Shown one piece after another: positions 2,259 through 62,819 of a DNA stretch of 64,000 nt. A program made the translations under genes and the position numbers. Below the pieces are notes generated by a model, which saw nothing but the letters and a program-made list of their open reading frames with translations, made no database searches and was not told where the DNA came from. The stretch comes from Leucoraja ocellata (taxonomy: Eukaryota). Numbering within the stretch: position 1 is the stretch's first letter; each line of letters starts with the position of its first letter. The DNA lies in assembly GCA_036785375.1 (NCBI GenBank), contig JAWMAR010000007.1:11160001-11224000 (forward strand). The letters run 5' to 3'.

Positions 2259-2702
2259 AGGATGTACAAGGATGTACCCGGATTTGGAACGGTAACGACT
2301 GATGAGGGATAGTTAGCATGGCTTTGTGTGTGGAATTTGTGTGTGACTCATGAATTTGACTGAGCTTTTGATGAGGCGATGAGTCTATTGATGAGGGCAG
2401 AGCTGGTACACATTGCCTGCATGGACGTTAACATGGCCTTTGCCAAGTTCTCACATGTCTTACCATTCTGGAAGATTAAATCACATGAGGTCTAGGGTGA
2501 ATGAGCCAATTGGATATGAATTTGGCTTGGTGGAAGGTGGTGGTGATGGGTTGCTTCTCAGAATGGAGGCCTGTGACTAGTGGTGTATCACAGGGATCGG
2601 TGCTGGGCTCACTCAGTATGAAATGGGTTTGATGTGTTCCCCAAGGGGTGTCCTCGCAGATGTGTGTATTTTGCAGCTCACGGTGTGTTTGGTGGTCCTT
2701 AC

Positions 2703-2780
2703 CAGTCTCCTCCTCTTTGCAGGGAGGTCTTTGAATATGCACAGTACTGTACAGAGTGTTATTCTGATACTCCTGGGGAT
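2703..2780 (-). CDS. Cytoplasmic exon, copy A: DPQEYQNNTLYSTVHIQRPPCKEEET (ITSM TxYxxV)
   Basis: tgtgttcttttcag|AT...ACTG|gtaagg, 78 nt, phase 1/1, open. Confidence 0.75.
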
Positions 2781-5700
2781 CTGAAAAGAACACAGATTGT
2801 TGTTGCATTCCAGCATCGCTCCCCCACTGTATTCTACCACTCAAACCACCCACTCCCATTTAAACGACATTGGGACAGGTACTTGGTTTGGAAAGGTGTA
2901 TAGGGATATGGGCCAAATGCAGGCAATTGGGACTAGTGTGGATGGGCATTTTGGTTGGCTTGAGCAAGTTGGACCAAAGAGCCTGTCTCTGTGCTCTATG
3001 ACTCTATGAGTCCCCACCTTTGATAATCACTGTCTCTTGCCTGTTCCGATTGCCCCTCCTATAGTGGTCCATCTTTTGCCAAGACTGTTCTTCACCCCTC
3101 ATTAGGATACGTGGCATGCCCCAAGAGAACCCTCGCTGCTTCTGTACAGAACCGTACTGCAGAATAGACAGCATTGTACTTCCAGGTCTAACGCTTGGCT
3201 GCCCGTTGGTGGGAAACGGAAAATAAACAACACCAGGATCTCTAGTAACTCTATGTCCTGGGTCTTTGTTACTAATTCCACCATGTCTGGCCTTTGCTGC
3301 ACCTGCCCTGAATGTTGAATATGGAGAGCTCTGGATCACAGGCTCGCTGGGAAGCCCAGTGTATATTGTCAGTGCCAGTGGATGGTTCTAGTCAGTACAT
3401 CAAGGGTTTGCCTCCCAGCCCGTTGGGGGCACTATTTTACATGGGGCGTCCACACCACCACGTTGTTTCACAGCTCACCGTGTGCTTACTGTTCCTTACC
3501 TATCTCCACTCCTACTCGAGAACGGCTTTGAACGTGAACAATGCTGTAAATGAGGGCATGGCTTTGTGTGTGGAATTTGTGTGTGAATTTGACTGAGCTT
3601 TTGATGAGGCGATGAGTCTATTGATGAGGGCAGAGCTGGTACACATTGCCTGCATGGACGTTAACACGGCCTTTGCCAAGTTCTCACATGGCTTACCATT
3701 CTGGAAGATTAAATCACATGAGGTCTAGGGTGAATGAGCCAATTGGATATGAATTTGGCTTGGTGGAAGGTGGTGGTGATGGGTTGCTTTTCAGACTGGA
3801 GGCCTGTGACTAGTGGTGTATCACAGGGATCGGTGCTGGGCTCACTCAGTATGAAATGGGTTTGATGTGTTCCCAAGGGGTGTCCTCGCAGAGGTGTGTA
3901 TTTTGCCGCTCATGGTGTGTTCAGTGGTCCTTACCAGTCTCCTCCTCTTTGCAGGGAGGTCTTTGAATGGGCAAATTGCTGTACAGATTGTTATTCTGAG
4001 ACTCCTGGGGATCTGAAAAGAACACAGATTGTTATTGCATTCCAGCATCGCTCCCCCACTGTATTCTAACACTCAAACCACCCACTCCCATTTAAACGAC
4101 ATTGGGACAGGTACTTGGTTTGGAAAGGTGTATAGGGATATGGGCCAAATGCAGGCAATTGGGACTAGTGTGGATGGGCATTTTGGTTGGCTTGAGCAAG
4201 TTGGACCAAAGAGCCTGTCTCTGTGCTGTATGACTCTATGAGTCCCCACCTTTGATAATCACTGTCTCTTGCCTGTTCCGATTGCCCCTCCTATAGTGGT
4301 CCATCTTTTGCCAAGACTGTTCTTCACCCCTCATTATGATACATTGCATGCCCCAAGAGAACCCTCGCTGCTTCTGTACAGAACCGTACTGCAGAATAGA
4401 CAGCATTGTACTCCCAGGTCTAACGCTTGGCTGCCCGTTGGTGGGAAATGGAAAATAAACAACACCAGGATCTCTAGTAACTCTATGTCCTGGGTCTTTG
4501 TTACTACTTCCACCATGTCTGGCCTTTGCTGCACCTGCCCTGAATGTTGGATATGGAGAGCTCTGGACCACAGGCTCGCTGGGAAGCCCAGTGTATATTG
4601 TCAGTACCAGTGGATGGTTCTAGTCAGTACATCAAGGGTTTGCCTCCCAGCCCGTTGGGGACACTATTTTACATGGGGCGTCCACACCACCACGGTTGTT
4701 TCACAGCTCACCGTGTGCTTACTGTTCCTTACCTATCTCCACTCCTACTCGAGAACGGCTTTGAACGTGAACAATGCTGTAAATGAGGGCATGGCTTTGT
4801 GTGTGGAATTTGTGTGTGAATTTGACTGAGCTTTTGATGAGGCGATGAGTCTATTGCTGAGGGCAGAGCTGGTACACATTGCCTGCATGGACGTTAACAT
4901 GGCCTTTGCCAAGTTCTCACATGTCTTACCATTCTGGAAGATTAAATCACATGAGGTCTAGGGTGAATGAGCCAATTAGATATGAATATGGCTTGGTGGA
5001 AGGTGGTGGTGATGGGTTGCTTTTCAGACTGGAGGCCTGTGACTAGTGGTGTATCACAGGGATCGGTGTTGGGCTCACTCAGTATGAAATGGGTTTGATG
5101 TGTTCCCCAAGGGGTGTCCTCGCAGATGTGTGTATTTTGCCGCTCACGATGTGTTCGGTGGTCCTTACCAGTCTCCTCCTCTTTGCAGGGAGGTCTTTGA
5201 ATGTGCACAGTGCCGTACAGAGTGTTATTCTGATACTCCTGGGGATCTGAAAAGAACACAGATTGTTATTGCATTCCAGCATCGCTCCCCCACTGTATTC
5301 TATCACTCAAACCACCCACTCCCATTTAAACGACATTGGGACAGGTACTTGGTTTGGAAAGGTGTATAGGGATATGGGCCAAATGCAGGAGATTGGGACT
5401 AGTGTGGATGGGCATTTTGGTTGGCTTGAGCAAGTTGGACCAAATAGCCTGTCTCTGTGCTCTATGACTCTATGTAGGTATGTTGCAAAACCTACCTGAA
5501 TCGTCGTTGAGAATCTGCCCCAGGCTGTGTGCGCAATTTTGGCGCTGTTTAGAGGGGGCGTGTTTAAAACGCGATTTTTACTAGGCAGTTGCAATCGAAA
5601 ATGTTCAGCCTAGTAAATCATTAATGGAAAATCGCTGAAAGAACCCGTCGCAAAAGGTATTATTAGTTTTTATGGCCTTGTATAATAGTTATAGTAGTTT

Positions 5701-8700
5701 AAAAATCACTCTCTAAACCCGCGACCTCTCGCAGCCCCAGGGTTTTATAAAGCAAACAATTAAAGGTATGTACCTTATTTTTACATTAAAAAGGGCTTCT
5801 TAAGAACCCTGTCTATAAAGTTTTCTATAGCGAGTAGCTCATTTTGGGCTCTTTATATCCCGCAGTATTTTTCTGGGCGTTTGAGGGCACAAATCCAGCG
5901 CAATGTGAACGTTCTAAACCAGCGCCTTCACAGGAACCCACTAGAAAGCCGATTTAAATTGACTTTAATTTACAGCAATTGAACACTAAATTCCTTCCAT
6001 TTGGCCTATAAATTGATGTAAATGAGATTTAAAAATCATGTTTTATTGTGAATTATTTGTGAATATTATTGGGGCACTTAGGCTATTTAAAAATGTTAAT
6101 CATTTATTAAGAAATGGATAGATGTTTAGATCTAGTAATTGAAGTTTGAAATTAGCTACAATTGGGTAACTAACTAATTAAATGCTTTAATTTCAGGTCA
6201 TCCAAGTAAGATTATTTTATATTTGTTTCGGAATGGTTCAATCTATGATAACTGAAAATTTCATTCAGTTCTCTTAATTTTTAAGAAGGTTATGGGCTTT
6301 TGACTGTCCATGATCACAGCTTTTTTGTTATGTCCATAGAAAATCAATAGGGAACATGATGCTAATTTCCGAGTATGAAAATGGCCATAACTTTTTTATT
6401 ATTTGAGATATGAAAGTGAATTAGGTGTCAAATTAAACTTATTTTTATGCTGTATCTGATGGGATAAATTGAAGACTTGATTTTTTAAATCTCAAACTTT
6501 TGTAACATTGCTACTCTATGAGTCCCCACCTTTGATAATCACTGTCTCTTGCCTGTTCCGATTGCCCCTCCTATAGTGGTCCATCTTTTGCCAAGACTGC
6601 TCTTCACCCCTCATTATGATACGTGGCATGCCCCAAGAGAACCCTCGCTGCTTCTGTAGATACAGAACCGTACTGCAGAATAGACAGCATTGTACTTCCA
6701 GGTCTAACGCTTGGCTGCCCGTTGGTGGGAAACGGAAAATAAACAACACCAGGATCTCTAGTAACTCTATGTCCTGGGTCTTTGTTACTACTTCCACCAT
6801 GTCTGGCCTTTGCTGCACCTGCCCTGAATGTTGGATATGGAGAGCTCTGGATCACAGGCTCGCTGGGAAGCCCAGTGTATATGGTCAGTACCAGTGGATG
6901 GTTCTAGTCAGTACATCAAGGGTTTGCCTCCCAGCCCGTTGGGGGCACTATTTTACATGGGCCGTCCACACCACCACGGTTGTTTCACAGCTCACCGTGT
7001 GCTTACTGTTTCTTACCTATCTCCACTCCTACTCGAGAACGGCTTTGAACGTGAACAATGCTGTAAATGAGGGCATGGCTTTGTGTGTGGAATTTGTGTG
7101 TGAATTTGACTGAGCTTTTGATGAGGCGATGAGTCTATTGATGAGGGCAGAGCTGGTACACATTGCCTGCATGGACGTTAACATGGCCTTTGCCAAGTTC
7201 TCACATTGCTTACCATTCTGGAAGATTAAATCACATGAGGTCTAGGGTGAATGAGCCAAATGGATATGAATTTGGCTTGGTGGAAGGTGGTGGTGATGGG
7301 TTGCTTTTCAGACTGGAGGCCTGTGACTAGTGGTGTATCACAGGGATCGGTGCTGGGCTCACTCAGTATGAAATGGGTTTGATGTGTTCCCAAGGGGTGT
7401 CCTCGCAGATGTGTATATTTTGCTGCTCACGGTGTGTTCGGTGGTCCTTACCAGTCTCCTCTTTGCAGGGAGGTCTTTGAATGTGCAAATTGCTGTACAG
7501 AGTGTTATTCTGAGACTCCTGGGGATCTGAAAAGAACACAGATTGTTATTGAATTCCAGCATCGCTCCCCCACTGTATTCTATCACTCAAACCACCCACT
7601 CCCATTTAAACGACATTGGGACAGGTACTTGGTTTGGAAAGGTGTATAGGGATATGGGCCAAATGCAGGCAATTGGGACTAGTGTGGATAGGCATTTTGG
7701 TTGGCTTGAGCAAGTTGGACCAAATAGCCTGTCTCTGTGCTCTATGACTCTATGAGTCCCCACCTTTGATAATCACTGTCTCTTGCCTGTTCCGATTGCC
7801 CCTCCTATAGTGGTCCATCTTTTGCCAAGACTGTTCTTCACCCCTCATTATGATACGTGGCATGCCCCAAGAGAACCCTCGCTGCTTCTGTACAGAACCG
7901 TACTGCAGAATAGACAGCATTGTACTTCCAGGTCTAACGCTTGGCTGCCCGTTGGTGGGAAGCGGAAAATAAACAACACCAGGTTTATCAAGGGTTTGCC
8001 TCCCAACCCGTTGGGGACACTATTTTACATGGGGCGTCCACACCACCACGTTGTTTCACAGCTCACCGTGTGCTTACTGTTCCTTACCTATCTCCACTCC
8101 TACTCGAGAACGGCTTTGAATGTGAACAATGCTGTAAATGAGGGCATCTGGAGAGTAATAATAATAATAATAACTTTATTTATAAAGCACTTTAAACAAC
8201 TGCAGTTGCCACAAAGTGCTGTACATGAGAACTCATGGACAAGAATTTATTACAAACCATTAAAAACCGTAAAACAAAGGACTATAAAACAGTAAAAATC
8301 AAAAGACATTAAAAGCACTAAAAACAGGAGCAATGTCTCAGCCAGTGTCGAAAGCCAGTGAATAAAAATGAGTTTTTAGGGTGGATTTGAAGATGGACAG
8401 TGAGGGGGCCTGTCTGATGTGCAACGGCAAGGTGTTCCAGAGTGCCGGAGCAGCAACAGAAAAGGCTCTATCCCCTCTGAGCTTCCGCTTAGACCTTGGT
8501 ACCTCAAGGAGCAGCTGATCAGCTGACCTGAGGCACCGGGCAGGAGCGTGTGGGTGGAGCAGCTCAGAGAGGTAAGGCGGGGCGAGCCCATTCAATGATT
8601 TAAAAACAAATAAAATAATTTTTAAATGAACTCGAAAGTACACCGGGAGCCAGTGAAGGGAGGCCAAAATTGGCGTAATGTGCTCCCTCTTTCAAGTTCC

Positions 8701-11700
8701 GGTTAAGAGGCGATCTGGAAAGGACACAAATTTACTGCACAACTTCATCGCCTTGCTATCTTAACCTCACAATCCCAGCCCCTGAACTACTATCTCCCTT
8801 TTTGATGACCCTCGGACTGTCCTTGATCGGACTTTGTTGGCTTTACTTTCACTAAATGTTATTCCCTTATCATGTATCGATACACTATAAATAGCTCGAT
8901 TGTAATCATGTATTGTCTTCCTGCTGACTGGATGGCACACAACAAAAGCTTTTCACTGTACCTCGGTACACGTGACACCAAACTAAACTGTAACTGTCCA
9001 ACAGTCTCTCTCCCCCCCCCATCCATAACCCTGACAGCCCAATCTCTCCCCTTTCCTATCGCCCTACTCCCTTTTCTGCAGTTTTACTTCCCTGCAGGTG
9101 GAAAATAGAATATTGACAAGGCCCTGGAGGCAGGAATCTTGGGACTGGCATTGTTTTGCTGCTCACCATGTGTTCACTGTTCCCTACACATGAGGGGGTT
9201 ATTTGATTGGCAGGTGGGTTGAACAGCAGCCAGAGGTGAAAGACTGAAGGTGTGAGATAAGGATACATGTGAATTGTGAAGCCAGAGGAATGAATGTGGG
9301 TGGAAGGGGAGGGGAGCATTAAAATGGGTGCTCGTCCTGATGGGGCACAGAGAAGAGAGAGGTGGGGTGGGAAGGGGGTGGGGAGAAGTGTAGATGGGTT
9401 TTGCTGGTTAGTTACCTAACATTGGAAAATTCAATGTTCACACCGTTAGGTTGTAAACAAACCAAGCGGAATATAACCTGGAGTATTGCGTACAGTTTTG
9501 GTCTCCTAATGTGAGGAAAGACATTCTTGCCATAGAGAGAGTACAGAGAAGGTTCACCAGACTGATTCCTGGGATGTCAGGACTTTCATATGAAGAAAGA
9601 CTGGATAGACTTGGTTTATACTCTCTAGAATTAAGAGATTGAGAGGGGATCTTATAGAAACTTACAAAATTCTTAAGGGGTTGGACAGGCTAGATGCAGG
9701 AAGATTGTTCCCGATGTTGGGGAAGTCCAGAACAAGGGGTCATAGTTTAAGGATAAGGGGGAAATCTTTTAGGACCGAGATGAGGAAAACTTTTTTCACA
9801 CAGAGAGTGGTGAATCTCTGGAATTCTCTGCCGCAGAAGGTAGTTGAGGCCAGTTCATTGGCTATATTTAAGAGGGAGTTAGATGTGGCCCTTGTGGCTA
9901 AAGGGATCAGGGGGTATGGAGAGAAGGCAGGTACAGGATACTGAGTTGGATGGTCAGCCATGATCATATTGAATGGCGGTGCAGGCTCGAAGGGCCGAAT
10001 GGCTTATACCTGCACCCATTTTCTATGTTTCTATAAGGTGCTGTTTGTGTATGGTATTACTTTAACAATGGAGGAGGCCCAGGACAGTGAGGTTAGGATG
10101 GGAATGGGAAGGGGAGTTAAAATATATAGCAACAGAGAGATCCAACAGGTCTTGTTACACAGAGTTTGTGTTCAGTGGAACGGTCGCCGAAGCTATATTT
10201 GGTCTCGCCAATGTAAAGGAGGCCACATCAGGTGAAGTAGATGAAGTTGGAGGAGGTGCAGGTTAACCTCTGTCTCACCTGGAAGGACTGCTGGGGGTTC
10301 CTGGATGGATGTAAGGGAGGAGATGTAGGGACAGGTTTGCATCTCCTGCAGTTGCAAGGGAACGTTCCACTCATATATTTCTTAAAGAGGATGATGATTG
10401 GACTTTTTGGCCTTCCATCACAGTGAGGAATGTAGGGAATCTGCTGACGTGGATGCTTATGTTAACTTTTATATAATTGTGTGTCTTGTACGGCTGTACG
10501 GTAATTCACAAAACACTGTATCTTAATTGGTACATGTGACAATAAAAGACCTTTGTAACCTTTGAATACAAGTTGAGAGCAAGAATCAACCACTCAGCTC
10601 TGCTTTTCAATGATATCATGACTGATATCCCACCTGCTAAATGCTCACTACTGTGCTCTTCAAGAGCATGAAACGTCTGACGAAGGTGTGTCCAGCACGA
10701 ATGTTAGTGCTTTCTCTTTTCACAGAGGTTGCCTGACCTGTTGTGGGTTTCCAGATATTTCTGTTTCCAGATATACTCCATCTATCTCTGGCCCAAAATA
10801 TTAAAAACTCAATCTTTTGAGGAAGAGAGTTCCAAAGACTGTTGATCTAAGAAACGAAAATCAAGTCATCCTAAAATGGGTGACCCCTACTTGTGAACAG
10901 TAACTCTTCAATCCAGGTTTGCTCACAAGAGCAAACATCTTCTCAAATCCATTCTGCAAAGATGCTTTGGGAGCTTAGTAAAGTTTTTTCTCACTTTAAT
11001 GCCTCTAATTTTTACATCCATGATACTGCATGTTCCCCCAGTCCCACTCCAAACACGTCTGCTGCTGAAACCCATGTCCCTATCTTCAATCATTCCAGCC
11101 TTGTCACCTCTTACGTGAGTTTTAATCTGTACAAAACGCTCCATTGGCCTCCACTGGCTCCAGCTCGGGGGCATCTCAGTGTGAAGGTTCTCTTTTCCCA
11201 TTTTCTGTAAGCTGTTCCACTTTGCTAATCTTGGGATCTCTACGTTCTCCAGCTTGCCTCAGAAACATCCCCTCTTTGTTTCTCAGATCAATAGGAGCTC
11301 CCTTCCTCAATGACAGTGGCAGCACAGTGGCGCAGCAGGTAAAATGTGCAAACTCCACACTGATATCACCCAAGTTTGGGATCGAGCACGGGTCTCAAGC
11401 GCTGTGAGGCAGCAGCTCTCCCAGCAGCGCCACAGCACAGCACCAGAGATCTGGGTTCAATACAGACTGTATAGAGTCTGTGCTCGTCCCCATGAATGCT
11501 TGGCTTACCTCCGGATGTTCCAGTTTCCTCCACCACCTCATAGATATGCGGGTTAAATCGCCCCTAAGATCCAGGGAGATGATGAGAAAGTGGGTTGATA
11601 TAGAATTAGTGTGAAAGTATGATCAATGGTTGGCATGAACTCAGTGGGCAGAACAGCCTATTTCCATGCTGTATCCATAAAATTTCAACTTTTAACCACT

Positions 11701-14700
11701 TTGCTGCAGGAGCTGGATCATGAAAGCTGGCCTTTACTTTCTGCATCTCTTCCTCCTGGTTACCTCTGTGCAAATTCCAAATGATAACCATCACTGCACT
11801 CACCAACATTCCTGTCCAATTCTCTCGGAGTTGGGACTGCCTGGGTGGCTGCCCTGTTTCTTGTCTCTGTGTTTAAATTAACAACACTGTAAATAGGATC
11901 CCCTTCAGGCTCCTGTGAACCTGCCAAAGACACAAAAAAGCAATGCGTATTTCAATGGAGAAATTAGAGCTCCCAAACTGTCCACCCCATCCCCTCCCAC
12001 AGGGTCAAAACTGAAGGGAATCCTGGAGTAATCGCAAAATGCAGAACTTTCCAACCCTATCCTCAGGCGTGGTGGAGGGTTACATAGATGAGGTATTTTT
12101 GTGCAAATCTATGAGATACATTGATCAGGTATTGTTACTTTGGGAATAATAGGATCAATTCCAAATTACAATGACCTTTCAAAACCAAAGCTGGTGTATT
12201 AGATATAATATTGGTCTCCTTACCCTAAAAAGCAATGTACAGGTAATTCCGCTATACCACGAATGCTGCATTCTTAAGGAACATCTTATTGTAAAAAATT
12301 ACATTCTGAAAATAATTGGGCCAATGAGAAAAAGGAGGTAAGGGGCTAGTGATTATGAGGCTTGCAATAACAATGTTATTTCTCCCACTGGTTTTTTAAA
12401 AACAGAGATCTATTTTATAGCTCCAAGTTTAGTTTTGTAGCTGCAATCTACAAATACTGATGGCTCAATGTTACATTGTTTAATAGAGTATCACTGCACA
12501 CATGTCAATTTAAATGATTGCTTGGCCACCCATGATGACCTGTATTCATAAGAGACAGTGGTGACTGCTTACTGCAGGGAGGTTACATGAACATGTTTTT
12601 TTCTCCCCAGGTTGTTTTTTCCAAGATAGCTTTTTTTCTGCTTTCCAAAGTAACTTTTAACTGGATCTCTACTTCCTGATAGAGATTATTTTATAACCAA
12701 TTCAAGCCGCATAATAGCATTACCTAATTTAGCAATCGTGTTGTAGCCAATTTGCGATTTCAAAACCTATGTTGAGCAGTACTACCTGTACTTACTTTGC
12801 AGGTTGAGCAGCAAAGGTTCATGAGGCTGGTTTTTGGGATGACAAAGAGATTAAATAGGTTGGACCTTCAATCTTTAGAGTTAAGGACAGGTGTCCAATA
12901 CAAAATACTTCCAGTAGGTTCGACAGAGTAGATTAATTCCCATGACTGAGGAATCTGGAATCTTAGTGCAAGCCCTGGGCCTTAAGGAGAGTCTTTTAAG
13001 TATTAATATTCCACTTGAACACACAACCTGATCTGCTCTGAGAGGGATTGTCTTTGCTGATCTAATTAGAAGGCTGTTGGAGGTAGGGAAGGAGGGTAGG
13101 TGGTAGCGACAATTGAAAGGCCAGTTATTAAATGTGGGTTTGAGCTCTGCTTTTCCAAAGAATGTCCTCAATATGAAAAGAAGTTTTGGCAGATTCTCCT
13201 ATTACCTGGCTCTGGTCCTTGTGGTTTCCGACCATTGGCCATCCTGGCATCAACACAACACACACGCTGCTGTGAACCTGTCAAAGACAAAGGAAAGTAT
13301 TCTGTGAGAATTCTCTCTAGATACCTCTCCCACTCTCCTCCTTTAACACACTTCTCTACTCTCAGCTCATGGGCCTCTGAGCCCATCATGCTCCCATCTG
13401 GGCCTACTAATTCCCTGCACAAGTTCTTTTCTTTCATAATCTTCCTTAAAGGCCCTGTCCAATTTCTGTTCCTTAAACTTTGCATATGCATCCTTTTCCT
13501 TCGACACTAAATTTACAACCTCTCATCATTAAATCACTCTCACTTCCTGATGCAAACTTTCCCAATAGCAGCTGGTCCATAACTACTTTACCCGGTAAAA
13601 AACAAAGTGCTGGAGAAATTCATAGGGCCATGCAGGCTCTGTGGTGGAGAGAAATGGATAGATAATGTTTTGGGTCGCGATCCTTCATCAGATTGATGCA
13701 GTAGAGGGGAGAAAGCTGGCAAGGAGAGTTGAAGGGGAACGGGTGTGGCAAAAACTGACAAATGTTGGTAGATTCAGAAAAGGGTTGAGTGGCAGATGGG
13801 TGGAGCTGTTGCGGCATTCCGGCGGCGACCCGACTTCGGAGGCTCAGCCGCAGGCCCAGGGGACAACATCGTCGGGAGCTCACAGGTCACAGGTTGGTGA
13901 TCTGTTTTTCCGGTGCTCCCACTACAACAGCTTCGTCTGCTGGACTGGAGGGCGGCAGTTTCAACCACCCCGGGCCGCGGAGTTTGAGCCGGCTCGTTCG
14001 CGGAGCTTGGATTCAGCCGTGGAACTGACTTACCATCACCCCGCGGGGTCACAACATGGGAAGCCTGAATCGCCTCAGCGCAGAGGGAGAACAAGGAAGG
14101 AAGAGACAAAGACTTTAAGATTTTTGCCTTCCATCACAGTGAGGAGGTGCCTGGTAGACTCACTGTGGTGGATGTTAAATTTGTGTTTATTGTGTGTTTT
14201 TGTTATTTATTATATGTATGACTGCAAGGCACGAAATTTCGTTCAGACCGGAAGGTCTGAATGACAATAAAGAATACTTTACTTTACAAAGGATTGAGAT
14301 AAAATGAAGACAATGAAGACAGATGTACAATCAAATAAGGAAGGAAGAAAACTGTGTAATATAAAACCAAAGGGCAGGATGTGTGTCTCAGTGGGCCTCC
14401 CTGTGTCCCAGTGGGCCTCCCTGTGTCCCAGTGGGCCTCCTTGTGTCCCAGTGGGCCTCCCTGTGTCCCAGTGGGCCTCCCTGTGTCCCAGTGGGCCTCC
14501 CTGTGTCCCAGTGGCCTCCTTGTGTCTCAGTGGGCCTCCCTGTGTCCCAGTGGGTCTCCCTGTGTCCCAGTGGGCCTCCCTGTGTCCCAGTGGGCCTCCC
14601 TGTGTCCCAGTGGGCCTCCCTGTGTCCCAGTGGGCCTCCCTGTGTCCCAGTGGGTCTCCTTGTGTCCCAGTGGGCCTCCTTGTGTCCCAGTGGGCCTCCT

Positions 14701-17700
14701 TGTGGCCCAGTGTTGAACACTATTCAGTACCAATCCTACCTTACCCCGGGATGTTCTGTTGTATTAATCATGCCACATGCTTGCTCAGTAGACTAACAAA
14801 AAGTTTGGCATTTCTCCAACACACTAGCCAATTTCTACAAATGCACCATTGAAAGCAAGACAAAGTGCTGGAGTAATTTAGCAAGTCAGGCAGCATCCCT
14901 GGAGAATGTGGATAGGTGACGTATAGGGTCGGGACCCTTCTTCAGACTGATCGGGATACCGTCAGGATGCTTCACAGCTTGGAAGCAGCTCCCCAAGACT
15001 AAGACATTTCAGAGAGTTGTGAATGTAGTCGAGTATATCACACAGACCACACTTCCCACTATTGACTTCATCTGCACTTCACGCTGCCTTAGGAAAGCAG
15101 TGAACATAATCAAGGATATTTTTCACCTCGGTCATCCCCTATTCTCCCCTCTCCCGTTGGGCAGAAGATACATTAGCTTAAAGACGCAATCCACCAGATT
15201 CAGGAACAGCTTCTTCCCCCACTTTTGCCAGACTACTGAACGGCCCTCCCACAAACTAAGGTGTAGTCCCGATCTTCCAACTTACTTCAATGCGACCCAT
15301 GCATTTTTTCTCTTTTTATCTGAACTTTTTCTGGAGCTGTTACACGGTAATGAAGGAACTATGGATGGCTCAGTGGCACAGCGGTAGAGTTGCTGCCTTA
15401 CTGCACCAGAGACCCGGGTTTGATCCTGACTATGGGAGCCATCTGTATGGAGTTTGTAAGTTCTCCCTGTAACCACTTAGGTTTTCTCCGAGTGCTCTGG
15501 TTTCCTCCCACACACGATAGACATAAGAATTAATGATACAGGGTGCTCGCTGGTCGGCACAGACATGGTGGGCCAAAGGACCTGTTTCCATGCTGTATCT
15601 CTACTAAAGTCTAAAACACAATATTATGTACTCTGGTATTTTTCTCTTTACACTGCCTGTTGTACTTGTATATGGATTGATTGTTCTCATGTATGATATG
15701 ATTAGATTTGACCAAATAACATACAAACAAAGATTTTCACTGTATCACAGTAGAAGTGACTATAATAATAAATTAATACATGAATGCAAGCATTTGTTGC
15801 TGTTGTACAAATCTAAGGACCTAATCAAGAACCTATCAATCTACGCTATAAAATTTCCACTGACTAGACCTCCACTTTTGCCTGTGGCATTGAATTCCAC
15901 TGATTCATCAGTCTCTGGCTAAAAAAAAAAAAATCTTCCTCATCTCCATTCTAAAGGTTCATCCTTTTATTCTGAGTCTGTGTTCTCTGGTTCTGGACTC
16001 TCTCACTGCTGGTAACATTCTCTCCATGCCCACATGTCCTTTTGATAGGTAGCATAGAGACCAAGGACCTATACATTTATACCTGAGTTCATATCTTCTT
16101 GCATTAAAGGCCAACATTACATTTGTTTTCCGAAATCCACACGTTTGATACATAAAGTGAGTTATATGTGAACATTGGTATTCCCCAATCTGTAACCGCT
16201 GGAAGAGCATTGAAGTTTGACAGCTTTTTTTCCTGAAGTGGATTATCTCACATTTTCTCACATTCCCATGTTGTTTCCCAACGTACTTGGCTGGTCGATA
16301 TATTCTCTTCAAACCTTGAGCCATCACATTCCCACTCAGTTTCAAATCATCTGCAAACTGGTCCATGATTGAATCGGAACGCTCAGAACCTTTTTCAAAT
16401 GATACCCAAGCATTTGAAGAACAGCGAGGATCTAAGGACAGAATCACAGCCGGACCTTCCCACAAATTCATCGGAGGGCAAGGGCAATGAATACCTTATC
16501 TCAGGACTGTATTATTAAGAACAGGAAATTCTGACCCTGTTATACCCGTCTATGGACAAGGTCTGTCAGGGTAGCAATGGTGAGGGCAGACTTGACCCTT
16601 CATGGGGTACAGCCCCAGTCCACTAGAACTGAAGATTTAACCTTGGCACACGATGTCTGTGCCGACCATAATGCCAAATTAAACTAATCATATCTCTCTA
16701 CACATGGTTGATCCCTTTCCATTCCATGTATATTTACATGTATAAATGCTCTTTAAACATTGCTAGCGTGTCAGCTTCCACACCTCCCCTGGTTGCACGT
16801 TCCAGGCACCAACCATTCTGAATAAATGGCACTTCTTAAATCTCCGTTAAAAACATTCCTACTCTCACCTTAACCCATGCTCTTTAGTTTTTGACATCTC
16901 AACCCTGGGGAAAAAAGACTAACTACTATTTCTATATGTCTCAGAATTTGACATTCTTTGATCAGCATCAGGTGTTCCAGAGAAAAACAATCCAACCTCT
17001 CCTTATAGCTAAAATCTTCTAATCCAGGCATTATTCTGTAACCCTCTGCACCCTCTCCAAAGTTTCCAAATCCTTCCTGAAATGTGGTCACCAGAACTGG
17101 ACAAAATACTCCAAATGTGGCCTAACCAGGGATGACTGGCCTCCTGTTCACATTTCCGGCCTATAATATTTGAAAAAGCCACCAGTCCCAAGAACACTCA
17201 CAACAGCCCACAATGTAGTTGTTATTGGCAAACTCACATTTTTTCAAAGACATGAGAGCAAATACCATCACAAGGAGAACAACAGCCAATATGGGTAATC
17301 CAATGTAGAGTTCCAGCCACAACCGTCTCCCATCATTGGGTAGGCAGATCTCACGCGTGTCCATCTGGTGTTCATTCACAGCCACACACGTGTAATTCCC
17401 TGGCAGCCTGGGGTGAAGCAGCTTTCCCACAGTCAGTAGTTTCTCTGGATCATGTGTGACTGTCATCTCACTACTGGTCACGGGCAGTGAGCTGTTCCCT
17501 GGGCCGATCCATGTGATGTTTGCAGGAGGCTTCCCTTCAGCCCTGCACACGAGGGTGCGTTCTCCAGCTCCATTGTCGCTCACAACGAACAGCTCCAGGA
17601 TGGTGGCTGGGACTTGGAGAAGGAAGAAATGTATTAAATTCATTGAATTAATCACTGTTGGTGTGCGGATAAACTCCATCTGAATGGGGATTGGAAGGAC

Positions 17701-20700
17701 ACATCTAGGAGACTGCAGTGAAATATTTGCAGATATGATAGTGTCTTTGAGAAGCACATGGATCTACAGGGAATGGAGGGATATGGATCATGTGTCGGCA
17801 GATGATATTAGTTTAACTTACAGAACCATTATATTCTGCACAGATATTGCGGGCCAAAGGGCCTGGTCCTGTGCTGCACTGTTCTATGTAATATTCAGTG
17901 AGAGAACATACAGGATCCCGGAGTCTATGTGAATGAAAGAGACAGTGGAGAGAGGGTTCACTAAGTGGGGGTGGGTGTGATTAAAGACTGTGGACTCTTC
18001 CCGTGGATTCCCCTTCATCCAGCGGACAGTGATGGGGTTGGGATTCTTGTTCAAGGGGCTGAAGCAGCAGGGCAGTGTGGCTGAATCTCTTCTCTTCCCA
18101 ATCACCATCGATGTGTTCTTCTTTCCATCTTGTATAGAGAAAAGTTGTATTTAACAATCTATTCCACATGGTTTATAAAAATACATCATCCATGCCTGTG
18201 ACATTGATTCCCCATCCCACTCCCGCTCTGATCTGTCTGTCTCAGACCTCCTGCATTGTTCTAACGAGGCCCAATCTCAAGCAACCTCATCTTCTGTCTG
18301 GGCAGCATGAAGCTTTTGTGTTAACATTTAATACAACAATTTCAATAACTTGCTTAAGGGCCTGTCCAACTTATGCGATTATTAGGCGACTACTGGCGAC
18401 TAGGCGGTCACCACACGGTTGCCGGGTGTCACATGTAGGGTCGTGAGTCGTCTCCTCAAGTCGCCCAAAGATCCGTAGCGTTTTTCTGGTCGCCGCAGGA
18501 TTTTGAAATGTTCAAATCTTTTTGGCGACACTCAGCGATCTTGGGCTTGTCGTAGCTTGTCTTCTCCTGACGTAGGTGCTGTCGTAAGTTGTCGCCAGGA
18601 TAACATAGGTTGTTGCCAGGATGATGTATGTTGTCGCTGGTGCTGACTTCGATGAATTCATTTGGGGACTACCTACGTCAACCTGCGTAAACCGGCGACA
18701 GCTACCGGCGTCAAGAGAAGTCTTCAATTATCACCGACAGGGTGGTAGCTTGTCGTAGCTTGTCGCGGGTGGAGGTAGGTTGACTGGTTATCGTAGGTTG
18801 TCACCTGTGTGGTCGTAGGGTTGTCTAGGTGTGGTCGTAGGTGGACGTCCTAAGTCGTGACGATTGAGTCGCCGGTTGTCATGGCTTAACGTCGACTAGG
18901 TGGTTGGTTGTTGTAGACGTTGTCGTAGGGGGGGTCCAGTCACCGGTTTTTCACAACCTGCTACGACCATGACAGTCACTGGCAGTTGCCTAAAAAATCA
19001 CCTAAGTGGGACAAGCCCTTTACTGTTAAGTATAAGAACTGGCCAGAACTGCCTCAAAAGTCAATATTACCTGACCTAAACCACCATAGCTAGAGGCTGA
19101 TGACAATATCACTGGAGATGCCACAAGTCTCCCGTCAACACTAACATTGGAGATGAGACAGTGGCGTTCACCTCTGTTCAAACATGAGAAAGTGAAGCCA
19201 ATTGTAAGAGTGCAGTCCACATGTGGCAGCTCAAATATCAAACCCACACATGGGCTGTAGTGTTGCTTATTGACAATGCAAGAGTATCATGAGGAAGACA
19301 GATGAACGTAGAACTGTCGAAAGATACTACAAATGTTGATCTAATACAGATATAGGCAGAGAAATGGCAGATGGAGTTTGATCCGAACATATGTGAAGTG
19401 TTGTCTTTGGGAGGTTGAATGCGTGGAAAATATACAAGGGCAAGACCCTTAATACCACTGATGTACAGAAAAATATTGGGATCCAATTCCATAACTCCCT
19501 GAAAATGGCAACACGTTAAAAACGTGTACAGTTTTCTTGCTTTCATTGGTCAAGGTACTGTATACAAGATGTGTAGGAAGGAACTGCAGATGCTGGTTAA
19601 AACCGAAGATGGACACAAAACGCTGGAGTAACTCAGCGGGACAGGCAGCATCTCTGGAGAGAAAGGATGTGTCACGTTTCAGGTCAAGAAGAAGATACTT
19701 GACCCGAAACATCATCCATTCCTTCTCTCCAGAGATGCTACCTGTCCCGGTGAGTTACTCCAGCTTTTAGTGTCTATCTACTGAATACAAGAGTCAGGAA
19801 GTCATGTTGTAGCTCTATACAACTTTAGTTACGACACTGGGATTATTGCATTCAGTTTTATGTGCAGTTTTCACCCATTACAGGAAGGATGAGGAGACTT
19901 TGGAAAGGGTTCAGAAGAGGTTTAGCAGAATGCTGCCTGGATTAGAGGGTAATAGTTATAATAAAAGGTTGGACATACTTGAACTGTTTTTCTGGACTCT
20001 TGAAAGTTTATAAAAATATGAAAGACATGGATAGGAGAGAGAGTCAGAACCTTTTGCCTACGGCGGGAATGTCAATGAATAGACGGCATTGTGATAAGGA
20101 CAGATGGGAAAAGATGAAAGGAGATATGTGGGGAAAGTTATTGTTTACACAGAGGGTGGTGGGTGCCAGGAAAATACTGTTAGGGGTGATGGAGGCAGCT
20201 ACGATAGTGGAGTTTTAGAGACTTTTTGAAATGCAGGTAATGGAAGAAATGCATCACCTGCAGGTAGACGAGATTAACGTAGCATCATGTTCGGTACAGA
20301 CATTGCGGGCCAAAGGGCCTGTTCCTGTGCTGGTCTACACTGTCAGTGGGAGCTCATTCCTCTTAAGGTTGTGCAATATGATATTATCGTTTACAGCATA
20401 ACATACGTTTCCTTACCCACAACCTGCAGTTTCATCTCATCCTGAGTCACAGTCGTCAACGCTGAACTCCTGATATAAACGTGACAGAAGTAATCACTGG
20501 CGTCATTCAGTTTGAGTCCCTTCACTCTGATGGAGGCGTTTCCCTGCTCCAGATTTCCCACCAGCTCATATCGATTTCCTTTATTTACATTTTTCGGAAT
20601 GTTATTTGCTGCTGGGCGGGGAGAAGTGTCACGAAAGACAACAGACCATTTTGGTGGATTCCTCTTCATCCACTTGATGGTGATGGAGCTGGGATTCCTG

Positions 20701-23700
20701 TTCGAGGGACTGAAGGAGCAGGGCAGTGTGGCAGTCGCACCCTTCCTCCCAATCACCATGGATGCTCTGTCATTATCACCTTGCAGAGAGAAGAGTTTTA
20801 AAGTGTGAATATGATGTAGTAATTGAATACAATAACCACACAGTCTTTATCAATAGTTCATCCATACTTGTGACTTGGATTCTCCATCCCATTCCCACTC
20901 TGATCCACCTGTTCCTGACCTGCACTATTTTATTAAGGGCCAATCTCAAGTAAAGACATCTCAGTTTCAGTCTGGCCAGGATGGAGCCTTGACCTTGAAG
21001 ACTGGGAACCGGAGAGGAGGATGGAGGGTGACTAAAGGCACGGTTAACTGAATTAGGTGGGGTGGGGGGCAGGTCTTAGGTTCTGCACCCGAAGCACTTC
21101 TCATTACCTCTGACATCTGCACTAATCAGGAATCTACTTATCTCTGCCTTAAATATATCCACTGACTTTGCCTCCACAGCCGTCTGTGGCAATGAATTCC
21201 ATAGATTCACCACCCTCCTACCAAAGAAATTCAGCCTCATCTCCTTCCTAAAAGAACGTCCTTTAATTCTGAGGATTAAACCTCTCGTCTTCGACTCTCC
21301 CACAAGTGGAAGCATCCTCTCCACATCCAAGCCTTTCACTATTCTGTCTGTTTCAATGAGGTCCTCCCTCATTCTTCTAAACTCCAGCAAACATAGGCCC
21401 AGTGACGTCAAATATTCATCTGATGATATCCTACTCATTCCTGGGATCATTCTTGTGAACCTCCTCTGGACCCTCTCCAGAGCCAGCACATCCTTCCTCA
21501 GATATGGTGCCTAAAATTGCTCACAATATTCCAAATGTGGCCTGACCAGCGCCTGAAAGATTCTCAGCATTACATCCCTACTTTTGCATATAAACCCTCT
21601 CGAAATAAATGCTAGCATTGCGTTTGCTTTCTGTACAACTGATTTGACTTGCAGATTAACTTTTTGTGAATCCTGCACCAGCATTCTCAAGTCACCTTGC
21701 ACCTCTGATTTCTGGATTCTCTTCCCATTTAGAAAATAATCAACGCCTTTAATCCTATTACCAAAATACATGACTCCACACTTTTCCACACCTTTCCATC
21801 TGCCACTTCTCTGCCCACTCTCCCAACCTATCCAAGTTCTTCTGCAGAGACCCTGCTTTCTCTGCACTACCTGCCTATCCACCTATTTTTGTATAAACCG
21901 CAAACTTGGCCACAAAGCCTTCAATCCCCTCATCCAAATCATTAATATACAACGTGAAGAGCAGCGGCCCCAGCACCGAGCCCTGCGGAACTCTGCTAGT
22001 AACTGGCAGCCAACCTGAAAATGCCTGGTTAACCGAATCAGGAGGGGTGCAAAATGGCAACTGTTGCCCAGACTCAGTGGGTTCTTCTGTACATGATGTA
22101 CTAACCGGGGGGATTGTGCTTATTTATGTACGGTGATATTCTTACTGATCTGTATGCAAAAAAGTATTTCACTGTACTTGCTACATGTGATAATAAAGAA
22201 ACCATTGAACCGAAAATAGACACAAAATGCTGGAGTAATTCAGCGGGCAGGCAGCATGTCTGGATAGAATGAATCGGTGACGTTTCGGGTCGTGATTCTT
22301 CTTCAGGAGAACTGAGTCAGTATCGCAGATGCTGTAGAACTCGCCAGTTCTGATACAAACAGCGAGCAAGTCACCAGAAATTGTTCTATTCACGGTTGAC
22401 CCATTGAACCATTGAGTCAACATTGAATGCAACAATTTCTGGTAACTTTCTCACTGTTTGTATCAGAAGTTCTGCAGCAGGTTATCCATCTGCAATACTG
22501 ACTCAGTTCTCCTCTCTCCACTGACGCTGCCTGATCTGCAGCGTGTTTCTTGCAGCTGACGTGCATTTTGCAGCTCACGTGCATTTTGCAGCTCTGTTTC
22601 TATCTTTGTTTGTGTTCTCTGTCTCCAGTTTCCTTCCTTAATTTATCAACCAGATAATTTCATCAACAGCAAACCTAGACTCACCCTTTCAGAGATATTT
22701 CCTATTTCCAATCCACCCCTCTATACAACCTCTGCAACTTCAGCTAACTTATTTTAAGTTGCAATAATTGTTCTGAGAATAACTGATTAATATTCCATTT
22801 TGCTTATCTTCAGTAGAACTGGTTAGTTCTGATAAAAGAGAGAAAAAGTATCATCCAAAATTCTTGAATTCAATGGAGTCTGCAATGATGCAGAGAGCCC
22901 TGTTCTTCAAATTGCATTAGACGGGTTATAAGGAAGTCACAAAAAATAGTCAGAGGGGGAATTGCATGGATGATTAAGATTACAAGCACCAGAAAGCTCA
23001 GGATTAACCATGTAGAATGAATAAAAGGTTTTCCCTCGTTCCCGCGCCCATCAACTGCATTTATTCCTTGTGAAAGCAGGCAACATAATGAAGGATCACT
23101 CACACCCGAGTTACTCTCTCTTCTCCCCTCCCCCATTACCGGAACCAGAGGCTGACAACAATGTCACTGGAGGTCCCATGATTCTCCCATCAGCACCAGC
23201 AATGGAGATTAGACATGATGTTTATCTATGTTTAACCACTAGAAAGTGAAGCCAATCACAAGAAAGTAGGCTCAACAAATGGCAGCTGAAATGATCAACC
23301 TGTCCATTCTCTCCCGCACACACACGTATCTCCAGATACATTATCACCATCGCTCCAAGATGGTGGCTGAAACCTAGAGAGGGATAAAAGTCACTGTTAT
23401 TCATTGGTGCAGGGGGAGAACCAGGGAGGGGTGAAGATTTGAAAGAGACCCAGCAGGAGAATGGAGTGAAATAGTCAGAGAGGAAACAGAACGAAGCTCA
23501 TTCTTCTCACAGTTGTTCAATGTGATTTTATCATTTACTCCTCAACACTGACTGTTTCCTTACCGAAAACCTGTAGTCCCGTCTCATCCTGAGTCACCTG
23601 ATAATTTTTCTTCTTAGAGGATTCAAAGATCCAAACATGACAGAAATAGTTGTTGGTGTCATTCAACATGAGTCCCCTCACTCTGATGGAGGCGTCTCCA

Positions 23701-26700
23701 TTGTCTACGTTTCCCACCAGCTCATATCGACCTCCTGTATTTACATTGTCAGTGCCGGGACCACTTGTGGCCTAGGAGCGGGTATGTTTAAAGACAACGG
23801 ACTCTTCCCATGGAGTCCCCTTCATCCAGAGGATAGTGATCACTCTGCTATTTGCACTCGAGTGTTTGAAGTTGCAGTTCAGTGTGGCACCACCTCCTCT
23901 CTTCCCGATCACCATAGATGTACCTCTACTACATTTTCTACTGCATGTTCTACTACATGGTGATTTTCCATCGAATTATAAGAAGATTGCAGATGGAATA
24001 TGAAGAGGTGGAGAAGGTGTGTGAGATTAACAGAGACACGCACCGAGTGATAATACCTACACAGAAATGAGAGATAAGATAGTTAAACAGAACAATGCTC
24101 AAGGGTGCCAAGGAACATGTGGAAAACTCCTTCTGAGACACAGTTAACTAAATCAAATGTGACACATTGAGGCAATGGTTAGTGAGGTGCGAGACGCTGG
24201 GCTCAATGATGAAAGTATGAAGTACAAGATTACGATAGCTACATTGCCATAGAAAAAATCAGGAGAGAAACAAATGATTGTCAGTTTGATGATCAGAACT
24301 GGGAAAAGTTACAATAAAACAAATGTCTTTTATGTTGCAGAGAAGTGGGAATGTGGAGGAATCTATGATAGGTTGGGGACAGGATTGCCCTGGTGATTGG
24401 CTGTTGTGGTCACTTGATTGGTAAGTGAATGAGAGTAAATATTGAGGTCAGCCAATATAACAGTATCACACGGCTTGATCTCTTGTTGCTACTGCCAGGT
24501 AGAAGGTTCAGGAAATGTGAACCTTTACCTCCAGGTTCAAGAAGACAATCTTGCCATTTAACAGGTTGTTTTGATTTCACTAAAGATCTCCCTCCCGAAC
24601 TGTGATTCAGCAATCCCGTTATTTGTCCATAACAGGTCAGTGCTGAAGTTTGGTTGTGTTTAGGTTCATTGTGGCATCATCAGGCTCTTGCACCAAACTA
24701 TTATGCACTTTGTATAAGGTTGCTTTAAATACTTCAAATGTTAATCAAATGCTATTGCCATGTATAACTGATATTGTATTATTGTTTGTTGTTAATGTAT
24801 TATTATGTTGCATCAATGTGCCTGCAAAGTTGCAGCAATGAATAATTGTGTTGTTCTAATCCCAGTGCATATGACTATTAAACACACCTGACTGGAATAA
24901 TATGGGGATTGTGTGGAAAGAATAGGGGGACTGGGACTGATGGATGTCAATGGACAGAGGGCTCTGGGGAATAGATGGATTTCACAAATACTTGTGGAAA
25001 GTTTATTTCCTCCTGCTTATGATTCAAAAACCACATGTCAGGGAAAAATAAGTCAGACATTCAGGACTGAGGTCAAGAAATTCCCTGCAATAATGTTTGT
25101 GAACCTACTGAATTTTCCATCCCAGAGTTTAGTTTATTGTCACCTGCACCAAGGTACAGTGAAAAGCTTTTATTGCATGCTAACCAGTCAACGAAAAGAC
25201 AATACATGATTACAATCAACAATCCACATTATGCAGAAGCTGTGGGTAAAACGTAGTTGAGTAAGTTCAAACCAAAGGTCCACAGTTTTTCTGGGTCTCA
25301 TGGAGATCACTGTCTGGGGATCTCTCAGTGAATGAACAAGGTCCAGAATTAGCCATGATTTTATGGATGAGAGTTGGTTCGAGCATCTGTGTTCTGACTC
25401 CTCCCATTTCACGTAATAGTCTAAGCATTGTTTTAAAAACCAGGGACTATCCCTTCCTGTTCACTAACACTGCCTGAACAAATGCTGTCTCTCCAATCTG
25501 CCAGGGTCAATTTTGATTCTCCATTTCACCATTCTACACTTAATGCTGCTTCGGAAAAGCAACCACATTATCAAGGACAACTAATACCCTGACATTCTCA
25601 CACCCAGAAAATACAAAAGCTTGAAAGTAGGTACCACCAGATGGAAGAACAACTTCTTACCTATTGTTAGAGTCTTGAATGGACCTCACAAATGGTAGGG
25701 TTGAATTACCCGATCTTCCAATCTACCACGTTAAACGCTTGCACTACTCTTTAGTAGCACTTTCACTGTAGCTGTCATACTACATTCTTCACTTTGCTTA
25801 TTTTCTCTTTTACAGTTCCTGATGCACACATCTAAGGTATGATTCTTCCAACCTCATCTATTGCATTCTGTGTCCCCAATATGATGAATACTTGTGTTCA
25901 GTCTGCGAAGGCCTGCTGGAGCTCCTGGTTCCGACGCTTTTTAACTCCTCTTTCTGTTCCCACACTGACCTGACTGTCACTGGCCTTGTGTATTATCAGT
26001 GTGAGAACACACACAAACAGGAAGAACAGCACCTCATGGTCAGCTTGTGTAACTTATAACCTAACCGTATGAACACTGAACTCTCAAAGTTCAAGTAATA
26101 CCTCCCTCCCCGCCCCCTCCACCAGCCCACTGTATACACATTGCTCCCATTATCCCTGTCACACTGCTCCTTTCATCTCCCGTATTCATCTCCCGTCCTC
26201 GAATCCCATAGTTCCTTCTATCACGTCTTTCACCTGCCCATCTCCCCTGGCCCATTCCATCCATTTGCCTCCGCCTTTACATTTTGTTTCCTTGTCTGAC
26301 AACTTTTACCACTTTTCACCACTCGCCATTATCACTGTCTCCACCCATCTGATAAGCATCTCCCCCGTGCCCCCCCCTCCCCCACCTCCATCCACCTCTC
26401 ATTGGGCAAGCTTTGCTCCGTTCCCATCTTTCTCCCTACTACTCCATCAGTTTGAAGGGAACCGACCCGGATAATTGCCTGTCCATTTCCTCCACCAATG
26501 CTGCTTGACCCACTGTGTCTTCAGCACTTTGTGTATTGCTCATGGTTCCAGCATCTGCAGTTTCTAGTGTCTCAATGGGATGATTTGTCTGGATGGCACT
26601 CGGAAAAATATCACTGTATCTCAGTGCAATAGACAATAATAAACCAATACCAATATCTGAAACTTAACTGGAGGAGATATAATATGTGACTATAACAGCA

Positions 26701-61152: not shown

Positions 61153-61642
61153 ATCTCAGGAGAACATGGATTGGTGACATTTCAGGCCAGGACCCTTCTT
61201 CAGACTGATTGTGGTAGTGGAGAGAAAACTGCAAAACTTGCGGGGAGGTTAAAGCTTTGCAAGTGATGGTGGATAAGAGCAAGGGAGCAGCTGGAATCAC
61301 AGAGGGGAAGCAGTAAGAGGGTGTCACAGAACTTGATACAGAGAGAGGAGGATATCTTCTTCAAAGTAGACATACCTTGTGGAGATATCGCAGTGGAGCA
61401 TGAAATGTAAATACATGGAAATGCAAATGTTGAAATCTTGCATAGACATTGTGTAGAATCATGTCCTCCTCCAACAAAAATCTGCGAAAGACCTGATAGG
61501 CTGATACGAGTGACACCATAACTCGAAGTATGCGTAATTTATTCAAAGCCTCTTTACATCATTTAATTATGTTTTATCTCTGGATTTTCCAATAAAAGAT
61601 GGCTACAATCCAGAGATATCGAGAAAGGGTGACAGCTTTAAT

Positions 61643-62502
61643 TAGGTATGTTACAAAACCTACCTGAATCGTCATTGGGAATCTGCCCACAGCCAGGTCC
61701 GTGATTTTGGCGCTGTTTGGAGGGGGCGGGTTTAAAACGCGATTTTTACTAGGCTGTACTAATCGCAGATGTTCAGCCTAGTAAATCATTAACGAAAATC
61801 GCTGCAAGACCCGGTCGCAAAAGGTATTATTAGTTTTGTAGGCCTCGATAATATAGTTATAATAGTTTTAAAATTACTGTCTGATTCCGCAACCTCTCGC
61901 AGCCCCAGGGTTTAATAAAGCAAACAATTAAAGGTATGTACCTTATTTTTACATTAAATGGGGCATATATATAACCCTATATATCAAGTTATCTATAACG
62001 AATAGTTCATTTTGGGCTTTTTATATCCCGCAGTATTTTTCTCGGCATTTGAGGGCACTAATCCAGCGCGATGTCAACGTTCTAAACCAGCGCGTTCACA
62101 TGAACCCACTAGAAAGCCGATTTAAATGGGCATTTATTTACAGCAATTGAACACTAAATTCCTTCCATTTGGCCTATAAATTAATGTAAATTAGATATAA
62201 AAATCATGTTATATTGTGAATTATTTGTGAATAATCTTTGGACACTTAGGCTATTTAAAAATGTTAATCTTTCCTTAAGAAATGGGCTTTTGACTATCCA
62301 AGATCACAGCTTTTTGTAATGTCCATTGAAAATCAATAGGGAACAAGATGCTAATTTCCGAGTATGAAAATGGCCATAACTTTTTTAATACTTGAGATAT
62401 GAAAGTGAATTTGGTGTCAAATTAAACTTATTGTTATGCTTTATCTGATGGGATAAATTGCAGACTTGATTTTTAAAATCTCAAAATTTTGTAACATTGC
62501 TA
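61643..62502 (+). mobile_element. MITE copy 3 (internally deleted), 7-bp TSD CTTTAAT
   Basis: Same termini and interior as 5475-6513. Confidence 0.92.
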
Positions 62503-62819
62503 CTTTAATGTAAAATTATTATGCAAAATCAATATTATATGCATTTAATACAATTCCGGCAACAACTTCCAATCAATAGGTTGGCTTTCAGGTAGCAGAA
62601 AGAATTGCAGCTGATCAGATGGCACCAGATACATGTTGGCAGTCTGTTAATCTTCCGTCTGGAATAGGAGCAAGCAGCGTATTGTGAACAAAGAATGACG
62701 TCTATGATTTAATAATTTCGATATCATTCTTTAAGTTGACTGTGTGCAAAACAACAGGGTAACTCACTGATCTAATCTTTGCAAACTTGTACTGAGGTAG
62801 CACTACACCATCACAAGTT

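Follow-up and report, generated by a model that had tools for sequence, protein, structure and literature searches.

What does a receptor gain, and by what route, when one exon of its signaling tail is copied in tandem? The question is raised by a 64,000-nucleotide window of the skate Leucoraja ocellata (assembly GCA_036785375.1, contig JAWMAR010000007.1, positions 11,160,001 to 11,224,000), in which a four-unit array (2316 to 8147, recorded without strand, units of ~1.24 kb) repeats a short tyrosine-motif exon of a minus-strand receptor gene. We propose, with a probability of about 60%, that the array arose when a single in-frame exon was duplicated in tandem in the tail of a Siglec-15-related skate receptor, likely an inhibitory one, each exon adding a predicted dock for SHP-1/SHP-2-type phosphatases. 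The expansion of the tail is real and lineage specific. The part worth keeping is a motif-only alternation of two exon types that is common to three paralogs; the proposals that a diverged pair of units was doubled as one block and that each exon type supplies a Grb2 site are weak. Immune receptor families are usually described as diversifying in their ligand-binding domains; here it is the signaling end that varies, both in motif type and in number, from 1 to 4 exons among paralogs.

Two exon types in the array

Adjoining units (A, 2316 to 3559; B, 3556 to 4792; C, 4789 to 7076; D, 7073 to 8147) meet at a single 4-bp microhomology, which on the gene strand reads ATGC, and each contains one tyrosine-motif exon. 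In gene order these are D (7452 to 7526, 75 nt), C (5169 to 5246, 78 nt), B (3935 to 4012, 78 nt), and A (2703 to 2780, 78 nt). All four lie on the minus strand, are in frame, and have AG/GT ends and phase 1-1 boundaries. The sole indel among them is a 3-nt difference in D, in frame as an earlier note on this DNA had stated, and a Leucoraja erinacea model (XP_055488227.1) has both the motif type of exon D and the same one-residue shortening.

The two motif types are also as that note described them. Exons A (TLYSTV) and C (TLYGTV) combine EYQN with Y(S/G)TV, and B (NLYSNL) and D (TLYSNL) combine ESQN with YSNL; an extra-C homopolymer is present in A and C alone. A and C are strict ITSMs (tyrosine-based switch motifs of immunoreceptors; TxYxxV/I) with an extra YQN, whereas D reads TxYxxL and B, having lost the T at Y-2, reads NxYxxL and offers YxN and YxxL. 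None of the four repeated exons matches the consensus of the ITIM (tyrosine-based inhibitory motif of immunoreceptors; S/I/V/LxYxxI/V/L), which the intact upstream exon, LIYSIV, does fit (consensus definitions as given in PMC5112662 and PMC12151841). The earlier note listed Y-6, Y-2, and Y+1 to Y+4 as the varying codons, and all eight variable sites do fall within Y-6 to Y+4, but only Y-6, Y+2, and Y+3 split A/C from B/D: the changes at Y-2 (T to N) and Y+4 (H to P) are private to B, and that at Y+1 (S to G) is private to C.

Alternation by array position across paralogs

Array positions in the paralogous genes were assigned from shared lesions and not from exon sequence: one paralog lost its first exon in a ~1-kb deletion, and two share a deletion plus an insertion in the third unit. 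The parity test covered the 10 units of three genes, with the single-exon paralog left out. Y+2 tracks array position in all 10 (N in five of five odd units, T in five of five even units), Y+3 follows parity in 9 of 10, and Y-6 does so in only 7 of 10. Exons of the same parity class diverge by 2.78% and those of different classes by 5.43%, a contrast that ranks first among 126 labelings, while intron divergence is 2.25% within and 2.18% between (rank 105 of 126). Since Y+2 tracks position and introns ignore it, the two types do alternate, but only in the motif itself and not in the surrounding DNA. The two alternating types of the earlier note thus hold beyond the window, recurring by position in two other paralogous arrays.

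The direction of change can be read from relatives with a single exon. This exon has S...YSNV in three of three Rhinoraja models and YSNV in Narcine; therefore, the derived residues are T at Y+2, L at Y+3, and Y at -6. From the ancestral S...YSNV, Y-6 was gained and N then changed to T, an order that accounts for one YxN per type without selection. One YxN per type, as the earlier note claimed, describes the four window copies; at least one candidate YxN (the Grb2-site consensus) occurs in all 4 window exons and in 11 of 11 copies, but 3 of 7 paralog copies carry both. A single multi-base mutation creating both types was ruled out by the existence of intermediates (YSNV, and YSTV with either Ser codon). 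Three of four other DNA runs have contigs of both YSNL and YSTV, each type with Y-6, and the fourth run has YSNV. In these contigs a three-way bubble at the motif sits between uniform-looking flanks; contigs drop simple variants, and the bubble was not counted as evidence of selection.

Concentration of change on the motif

Among the four window copies, 8 of 75 exon sites are variable against 36 of 933 intron sites (Fisher p=0.013), and the peak of a 33-nt scan falls on the motif (p=0.007), which bears out the earlier note's observation that variation is concentrated on the tyrosine motif. Across 11 copies from four paralogous genes the counts are 12 of 75 and 57 of 637 (p=0.047), and all 12 variable exon sites fall in a 34-nt stretch (p=0.0004). 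When only the seven paralog copies are counted, the exon comparison has p=0.074 and the scan p=0.026, with scan p values ranging from 0.007 to 0.028 across copy sets. Tyrosine exons outside the repeat, three in number, are conserved (4 of 239 sites versus 7 of 78, p=0.006; the ITIM exon was taken from three genes, one gene lacking it). Change is moderately concentrated on the motif, and selection there is suggested at most. Palindrome-perfecting mutation was ruled out as the source of the cluster, with 1 of 13 exon variants lengthening an inverted repeat versus 40 of 102 variants in introns, as was CpG decay (1 of 13 exon variants).

Several observations weigh against selection or function. 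The differences among the four exons are mostly amino acid changing, as the earlier note said (six nonsynonymous and two synonymous), but this ratio equals the neutral expectation (62 nonsynonymous and 15 synonymous sites; pN/pS 0.73). A dN/dS ratio above 1 was not found (pN/pS 0.73 to 0.81, with few changes and low power), and the note's possibly selected docking types gain no demonstration from it. Synonymous sites in the motif are raised as well (3 versus about 0.65 expected, p=0.03), consistent with locally elevated mutation. For alleles new in the paralogs, the whole exon shows no excess (5 of 75 versus 33 of 637, p=0.37), and only the motif window does (p=0.037). Tail exon 1, which has no tyrosine, is equally variable among genes (8 of 72 sites), and a second variable patch occupies intron positions +10 to +55 (7 of 46 sites). 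Two noncoding sites also track parity (9 of 10 and 6 of 7 units), a pattern compatible with a very early doubling of two units, and the 10 units stem from about four ancestors, so that 10 of 10 does not represent ten independent events. Finally, the window gene may make no protein, judging from its broken V2 and V4 exons.

A possible in-frame alternative donor lies 21 nt behind each tyrosine-motif exon (2682 to 2702 and equivalents), and one Rhinoraja model has a 7-residue extension at the equivalent place. Copy B has a stop in this extension and has lost the GT there. Four of the seven sites of the intron patch fall within the extension.

Junctions and growth of the array

At the start of every unit stands a copy of another exon, LIYSIV. 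The intact ITIM exon (8088 to 8147, minus strand, 60 nt) heads the array as its first exon and is the only copy with an acceptor, because the 4-bp microhomology junction sits just behind the AG. The copy at the head of unit A (3500 to 3559) retains its donor without an acceptor, as do the copies at 4733 to 4792 and 7017 to 7076, all on the minus strand. The same repeat junction is common to three genes, and the window's three internal junctions all derive by copying from a single junction; the middle one has the same 7-bp loss and internal head allele and is therefore a copy and not a fresh join. An assembly artefact was ruled out as the source of the array by copy divergence of 2.0 to 2.5%, private indels, and an insertion. 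Three 200-N runs occur in the surrounding cluster (G000:C7:11134230, 11268995, and 11322026), none of them within a tail array.

Distances along whole units give little sign of a doubled pair. A and C differ by 2.02%, B and D by 2.05%, and the other pairs by 2.15 to 2.51%; across genes, distances are star-like (1.6 to 2.9%), with A nearest to the last unit and D nearest to the first unit of another gene (1.69% and 1.60%). Six shared sites support AC|BD against one for AB|CD and one insertion shared by B and C, and each copy has 9 to 12 private single-nucleotide polymorphisms. The whole-unit tree is a star with none of six branches supported (A+C support 47/77). Approximately unbiased (AU) tests rejected B+D on one of four segments, the 5' intron (p-AU 0.043), and did not reject A+C on any of them. 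The four-gamete test is failed by 30 of 91 informative site pairs, and the sites are mosaic. The A/C versus B/D grouping of the earlier note is therefore present in six shared sites but finds no tree support and is set against private changes and near-equal distances. A higher-order repeat, with same-type monomers much closer along the whole unit, was not found in the distances, the tree, or the intron parity ranks.

One microhomology junction seeded the repeat. We suggest that unequal crossover and patchy gene conversion then enlarged and reshuffled the array, roughly when the genes duplicated (about 2% divergence). From an ancestral S...YSNV exon, the two derived types, YSNL and YSTV, would have originated early and been passed on according to position, with some selection likely acting on motif codons. 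Changes private to B or C would then be likely decay in redundant copies of a gene with a damaged ectodomain, and every added exon would supply a predicted phosphotyrosine dock for SHP-1/SHP-2-type phosphatases.

Docking function and competing explanations

Judged by its residues, the main motif is most likely an ITSM/ITIM-like dock for SHP-1/SHP-2. Docking of Grb2 at YxN is possible as a secondary function, and SAP is a possible partner at the ITSMs (partner assignments for ITSM and YxN from PMC4810170). Two motif types do alternate, as the earlier note proposed, but its reading of them as Grb2-type specificities is weak, and it overlooked both the ITSM/ITIM-like main motif of a Siglec-type tail and the damaged ectodomain. 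Splicing of the array genes and SH2 binding are predictions from exon sequence; if all exons were spliced, the main tyrosines would be spaced by 33, 26, 25, 26, 26, and 19 residues, near the spacing of Y223 and Y248 in PD-1. A mixture of ITIM, ITSM, and YxN in one fish receptor tail is known from teleost LITR 1.1b, which belongs to another receptor family and for which a tandem exon array is not among the features described in the part of PMC4810170 consulted.

The likeness to PD-1 invites an explanation in which YSNL, followed 25 to 26 residues on by YSTV, forms a two-exon module that binds the N-SH2 and C-SH2 domains of SHP-2 jointly, with selection keeping the alternation while introns mix. 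Its spacing (25 residues from D to C, 26 from B to A) and its order of an L-type and then a T-type motif resemble the ITIM-ITSM tandem through which PD-1 engages SHP-2, and the restriction of parity to the exon is in keeping with it. At pY+3, N-SH2 favors L and C-SH2 favors I; T at pY-2 is favored only by C-SH2, and T at pY+2 contacts E204 of C-SH2 (PMC12151841), so that L at +3 suits N-SH2 and T at -2 and +2 suits C-SH2. However, all neighboring pairs are 25 to 26 residues apart, including the ITIM exon to D and C to B, and the dimer is not singled out by spacing. D too has T at -2, one of five odd units has V instead of L at +3, one gene has two consecutive odd-type units, and one intact gene and the Rhinoraja models manage with a single exon; nor does dN/dS exceed 1. 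The skate motifs further differ from PD-1 in having S or G at +1 and L at -1 and in the pair being repeated twice, and SHP-2 binding is here a prediction. We therefore consider it unlikely that these receptors work through such a module. The broader proposal is equally improbable, namely that skates built a copy-number-variable tail from it under selection for alternation, within an undescribed paired Siglec-15-derived family. If selection did keep the alternation, the array would offer a natural experiment on the reading of paired motifs by tandem SH2 phosphatases.

Somewhat better placed, though still tentative, is a neutral history in which a single ancestral array passed on the alternation, and the clustered changes reflect a local excess of mutation together with relaxed constraint on exons that are redundant or dead. 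The neutral N:S ratio, the raised synonymous density, the motif-degrading private changes in B and C, the broken V2 and V4, and the variable noncoding patch beside the donor all agree with it. On the other side, two of the four best parity sites are adjacent amino acid changes in an exon making up 6% of the unit (post hoc binomial p=0.02), neither CpG nor palindrome-perfecting mutation accounts for the cluster, and both types persist in other genomes. Doubling of a diverged A/B pair as one 2.5-kb block, with a Grb2 site from each type, is the least probable of these alternatives. It can call on the six AC|BD sites (against one each for the other splits), a unique insertion shared by A and C, a head allele that tracks parity in 9 of 10 units, and the AU tests of A+C. 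Yet A-C and B-D are hardly closer than other pairs, B+D is rejected on the 5' intron, the introns ignore parity, the tree is a star with incompatible site pairs, the middle junction was copied from the other internal junctions with their 7-bp loss and head allele, and two YxN motifs stand together in three of seven paralog copies. We continue to favor tandem expansion of a single exon with a predicted phosphatase dock.

The gene and its damaged ectodomain

The gene runs on the minus strand from a leader exon at about 31792 to 31842 (approximate bounds) through four V exons to a C2-type immunoglobulin (Ig) plus transmembrane exon (17238 to 17612), whose transmembrane segment has no internal Lys or Arg. 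The V1 Ig exon (27029 to 27418) is Siglec-15-like, with the essential Arg aligned (CRVE), and the V3 Ig exon (20417 to 20779) is open. V2 (23564 to 23920) is broken, having lost its acceptor to a ~1.0-kb deletion and carrying an in-frame TAG, as is V4 (17938 to 18128), from which a ~490-bp deletion took the 3' half and the donor; the frame is open only when both are skipped. The tail begins with exon 1 (13206 to 13277) and an open exon 2 (11804 to 11920, PIYSVV), continues through the array, and ends in a last exon with CIYATV and a stop at G000:C7:11158142-11158081, 1.9 kb beyond the window. RefSeq models of related species, which are themselves predictions, join the same exons.

The best match of V1 is Siglec-15 (7ZOZ, E 1.7e-16), and its essential Arg aligns to those of Siglec-15 and CD33; this residue is present in all five cluster V1 exons checked. 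Homologous models with the same tail exons occur in skates, rays, and a shark, and Leucoraja, Amblyraja, and Rhinoraja supply the closest proteins that have names. These comparisons indicate that the window gene is likely an inhibitory Siglec-15-related receptor of skates. It shares with Siglec-15 (PDB 7ZOZ) the N-terminal V-set with aligned essential Arg and clearly related V and C2 exons but differs in having four V domains plus C2, no transmembrane lysine, and a long multi-tyrosine tail. Siglec-15 proper was ruled out: a transmembrane lysine is a feature of Siglec-15 (PMC7226832), and a separate Lys-bearing orthologue lies at C7:3.75 Mb (G000:C7:3.745-3.754 Mb), 7.4 Mb away, 96 to 100% identical to the Leucoraja model in matched exons.

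Private nonsynonymous and synonymous changes do not separate the window gene from its intact paralogs, being rich in nonsynonymous changes in all four genes and thus uninformative. Four RNA or RNA-like runs compared with the single-unit paralog gave zero cover on the bins of tail exons 1 and 2, with output that was mostly repeats and supports no verdict.

A candidate paired receptor cluster

The gene belongs to a cluster at C7:10.97-11.38 Mb with four long-tail genes and three short-tail genes bearing a transmembrane Arg. Linkage of long-tail and charged-transmembrane short-tail genes with similar ectodomains is the layout of paired receptors (PMC13358205 and PMC5112662). The three short-tail genes (G000:C7:10969799-11126785) are candidate activating partners; two have frameshifts or deletions in Ig exons. 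All four V exons are open in the three long-tail paralogs. Across the paralogous genes, array unit counts are 1, 3, 3 (plus a lost fourth), and 4. As in paired Siglecs (Siglec-5/14 and Siglec-11/16) and the paired CEACAMs of Xenopus, near-identical ectodomains are coupled either to long tyrosine tails (four genes) or to short tails with a transmembrane Arg (three). In those systems, as far as the portions consulted of the two sources describe them, turnover affects ligand-binding exons, whereas in the skate a predicted docking-site exon itself varies, both in type and in copy number.

In a comparison of the four long-tail genes, V1 differs at 65 of 372 sites and V3 at 33 of 363 (27 nonsynonymous), while flanks differ by 2 to 6%; divergence of V exons above their flanks is as expected under ligand-driven diversification. 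Decayed Arg-type transmembrane exon remnants lie behind V2 and V3 in every gene (window 23215 to 23298 and 19134 to 19208), which suggests that the multi-V ectodomain may have been assembled by joining older V-C2-transmembrane units.

Relatives found by the tail search come only from Leucoraja, Rhinoraja, Narcine, and Mobula; P0029 and P0031 were rejected as spurious matches. Shark and ray tails (P0022 from Heptranchias and P0007 from Mobula) also consist of similar tyrosine modules, and P0022 repeats one module and has a TLYSTV of its own. In databases the cluster genes are named uncharacterized or, automatically, Siglec or CD276. A description of this Siglec-15-derived cluster was not found in the literature searched, most subscription journals lying outside its reach, and the cluster would appear to be an expanded, apparently undescribed paired family of cartilaginous fish.

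Mobile and simple repeats in the window

Unit D has a ~160-bp deletion, and unit C alone carries a 1039-bp insertion (5475 to 6513, no strand assigned) with TAG...CTA ends and a 7-bp target duplication, likely a nonautonomous DNA transposon by these features. An element of this ~1-kb kind occurs twice in the window, at 5475 to 6513 and at about 61640 to 62510, the copies sharing TAG...CTA ends and 7-bp target duplications and being 85 to 94% alike. Another inserted element (8148 to 8714) apparently landed within the start of the ITIM exon, a state shared by three paralogs. This leaves the former acceptor stranded near 8714, with an exonic AG now acting as in-frame acceptor; the ITIM exon is therefore six codons shorter than in Rhinoraja. 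The intron behind the transmembrane exon contains a minisatellite (14382 to 14712) of 20-bp units in 16.6 copies.

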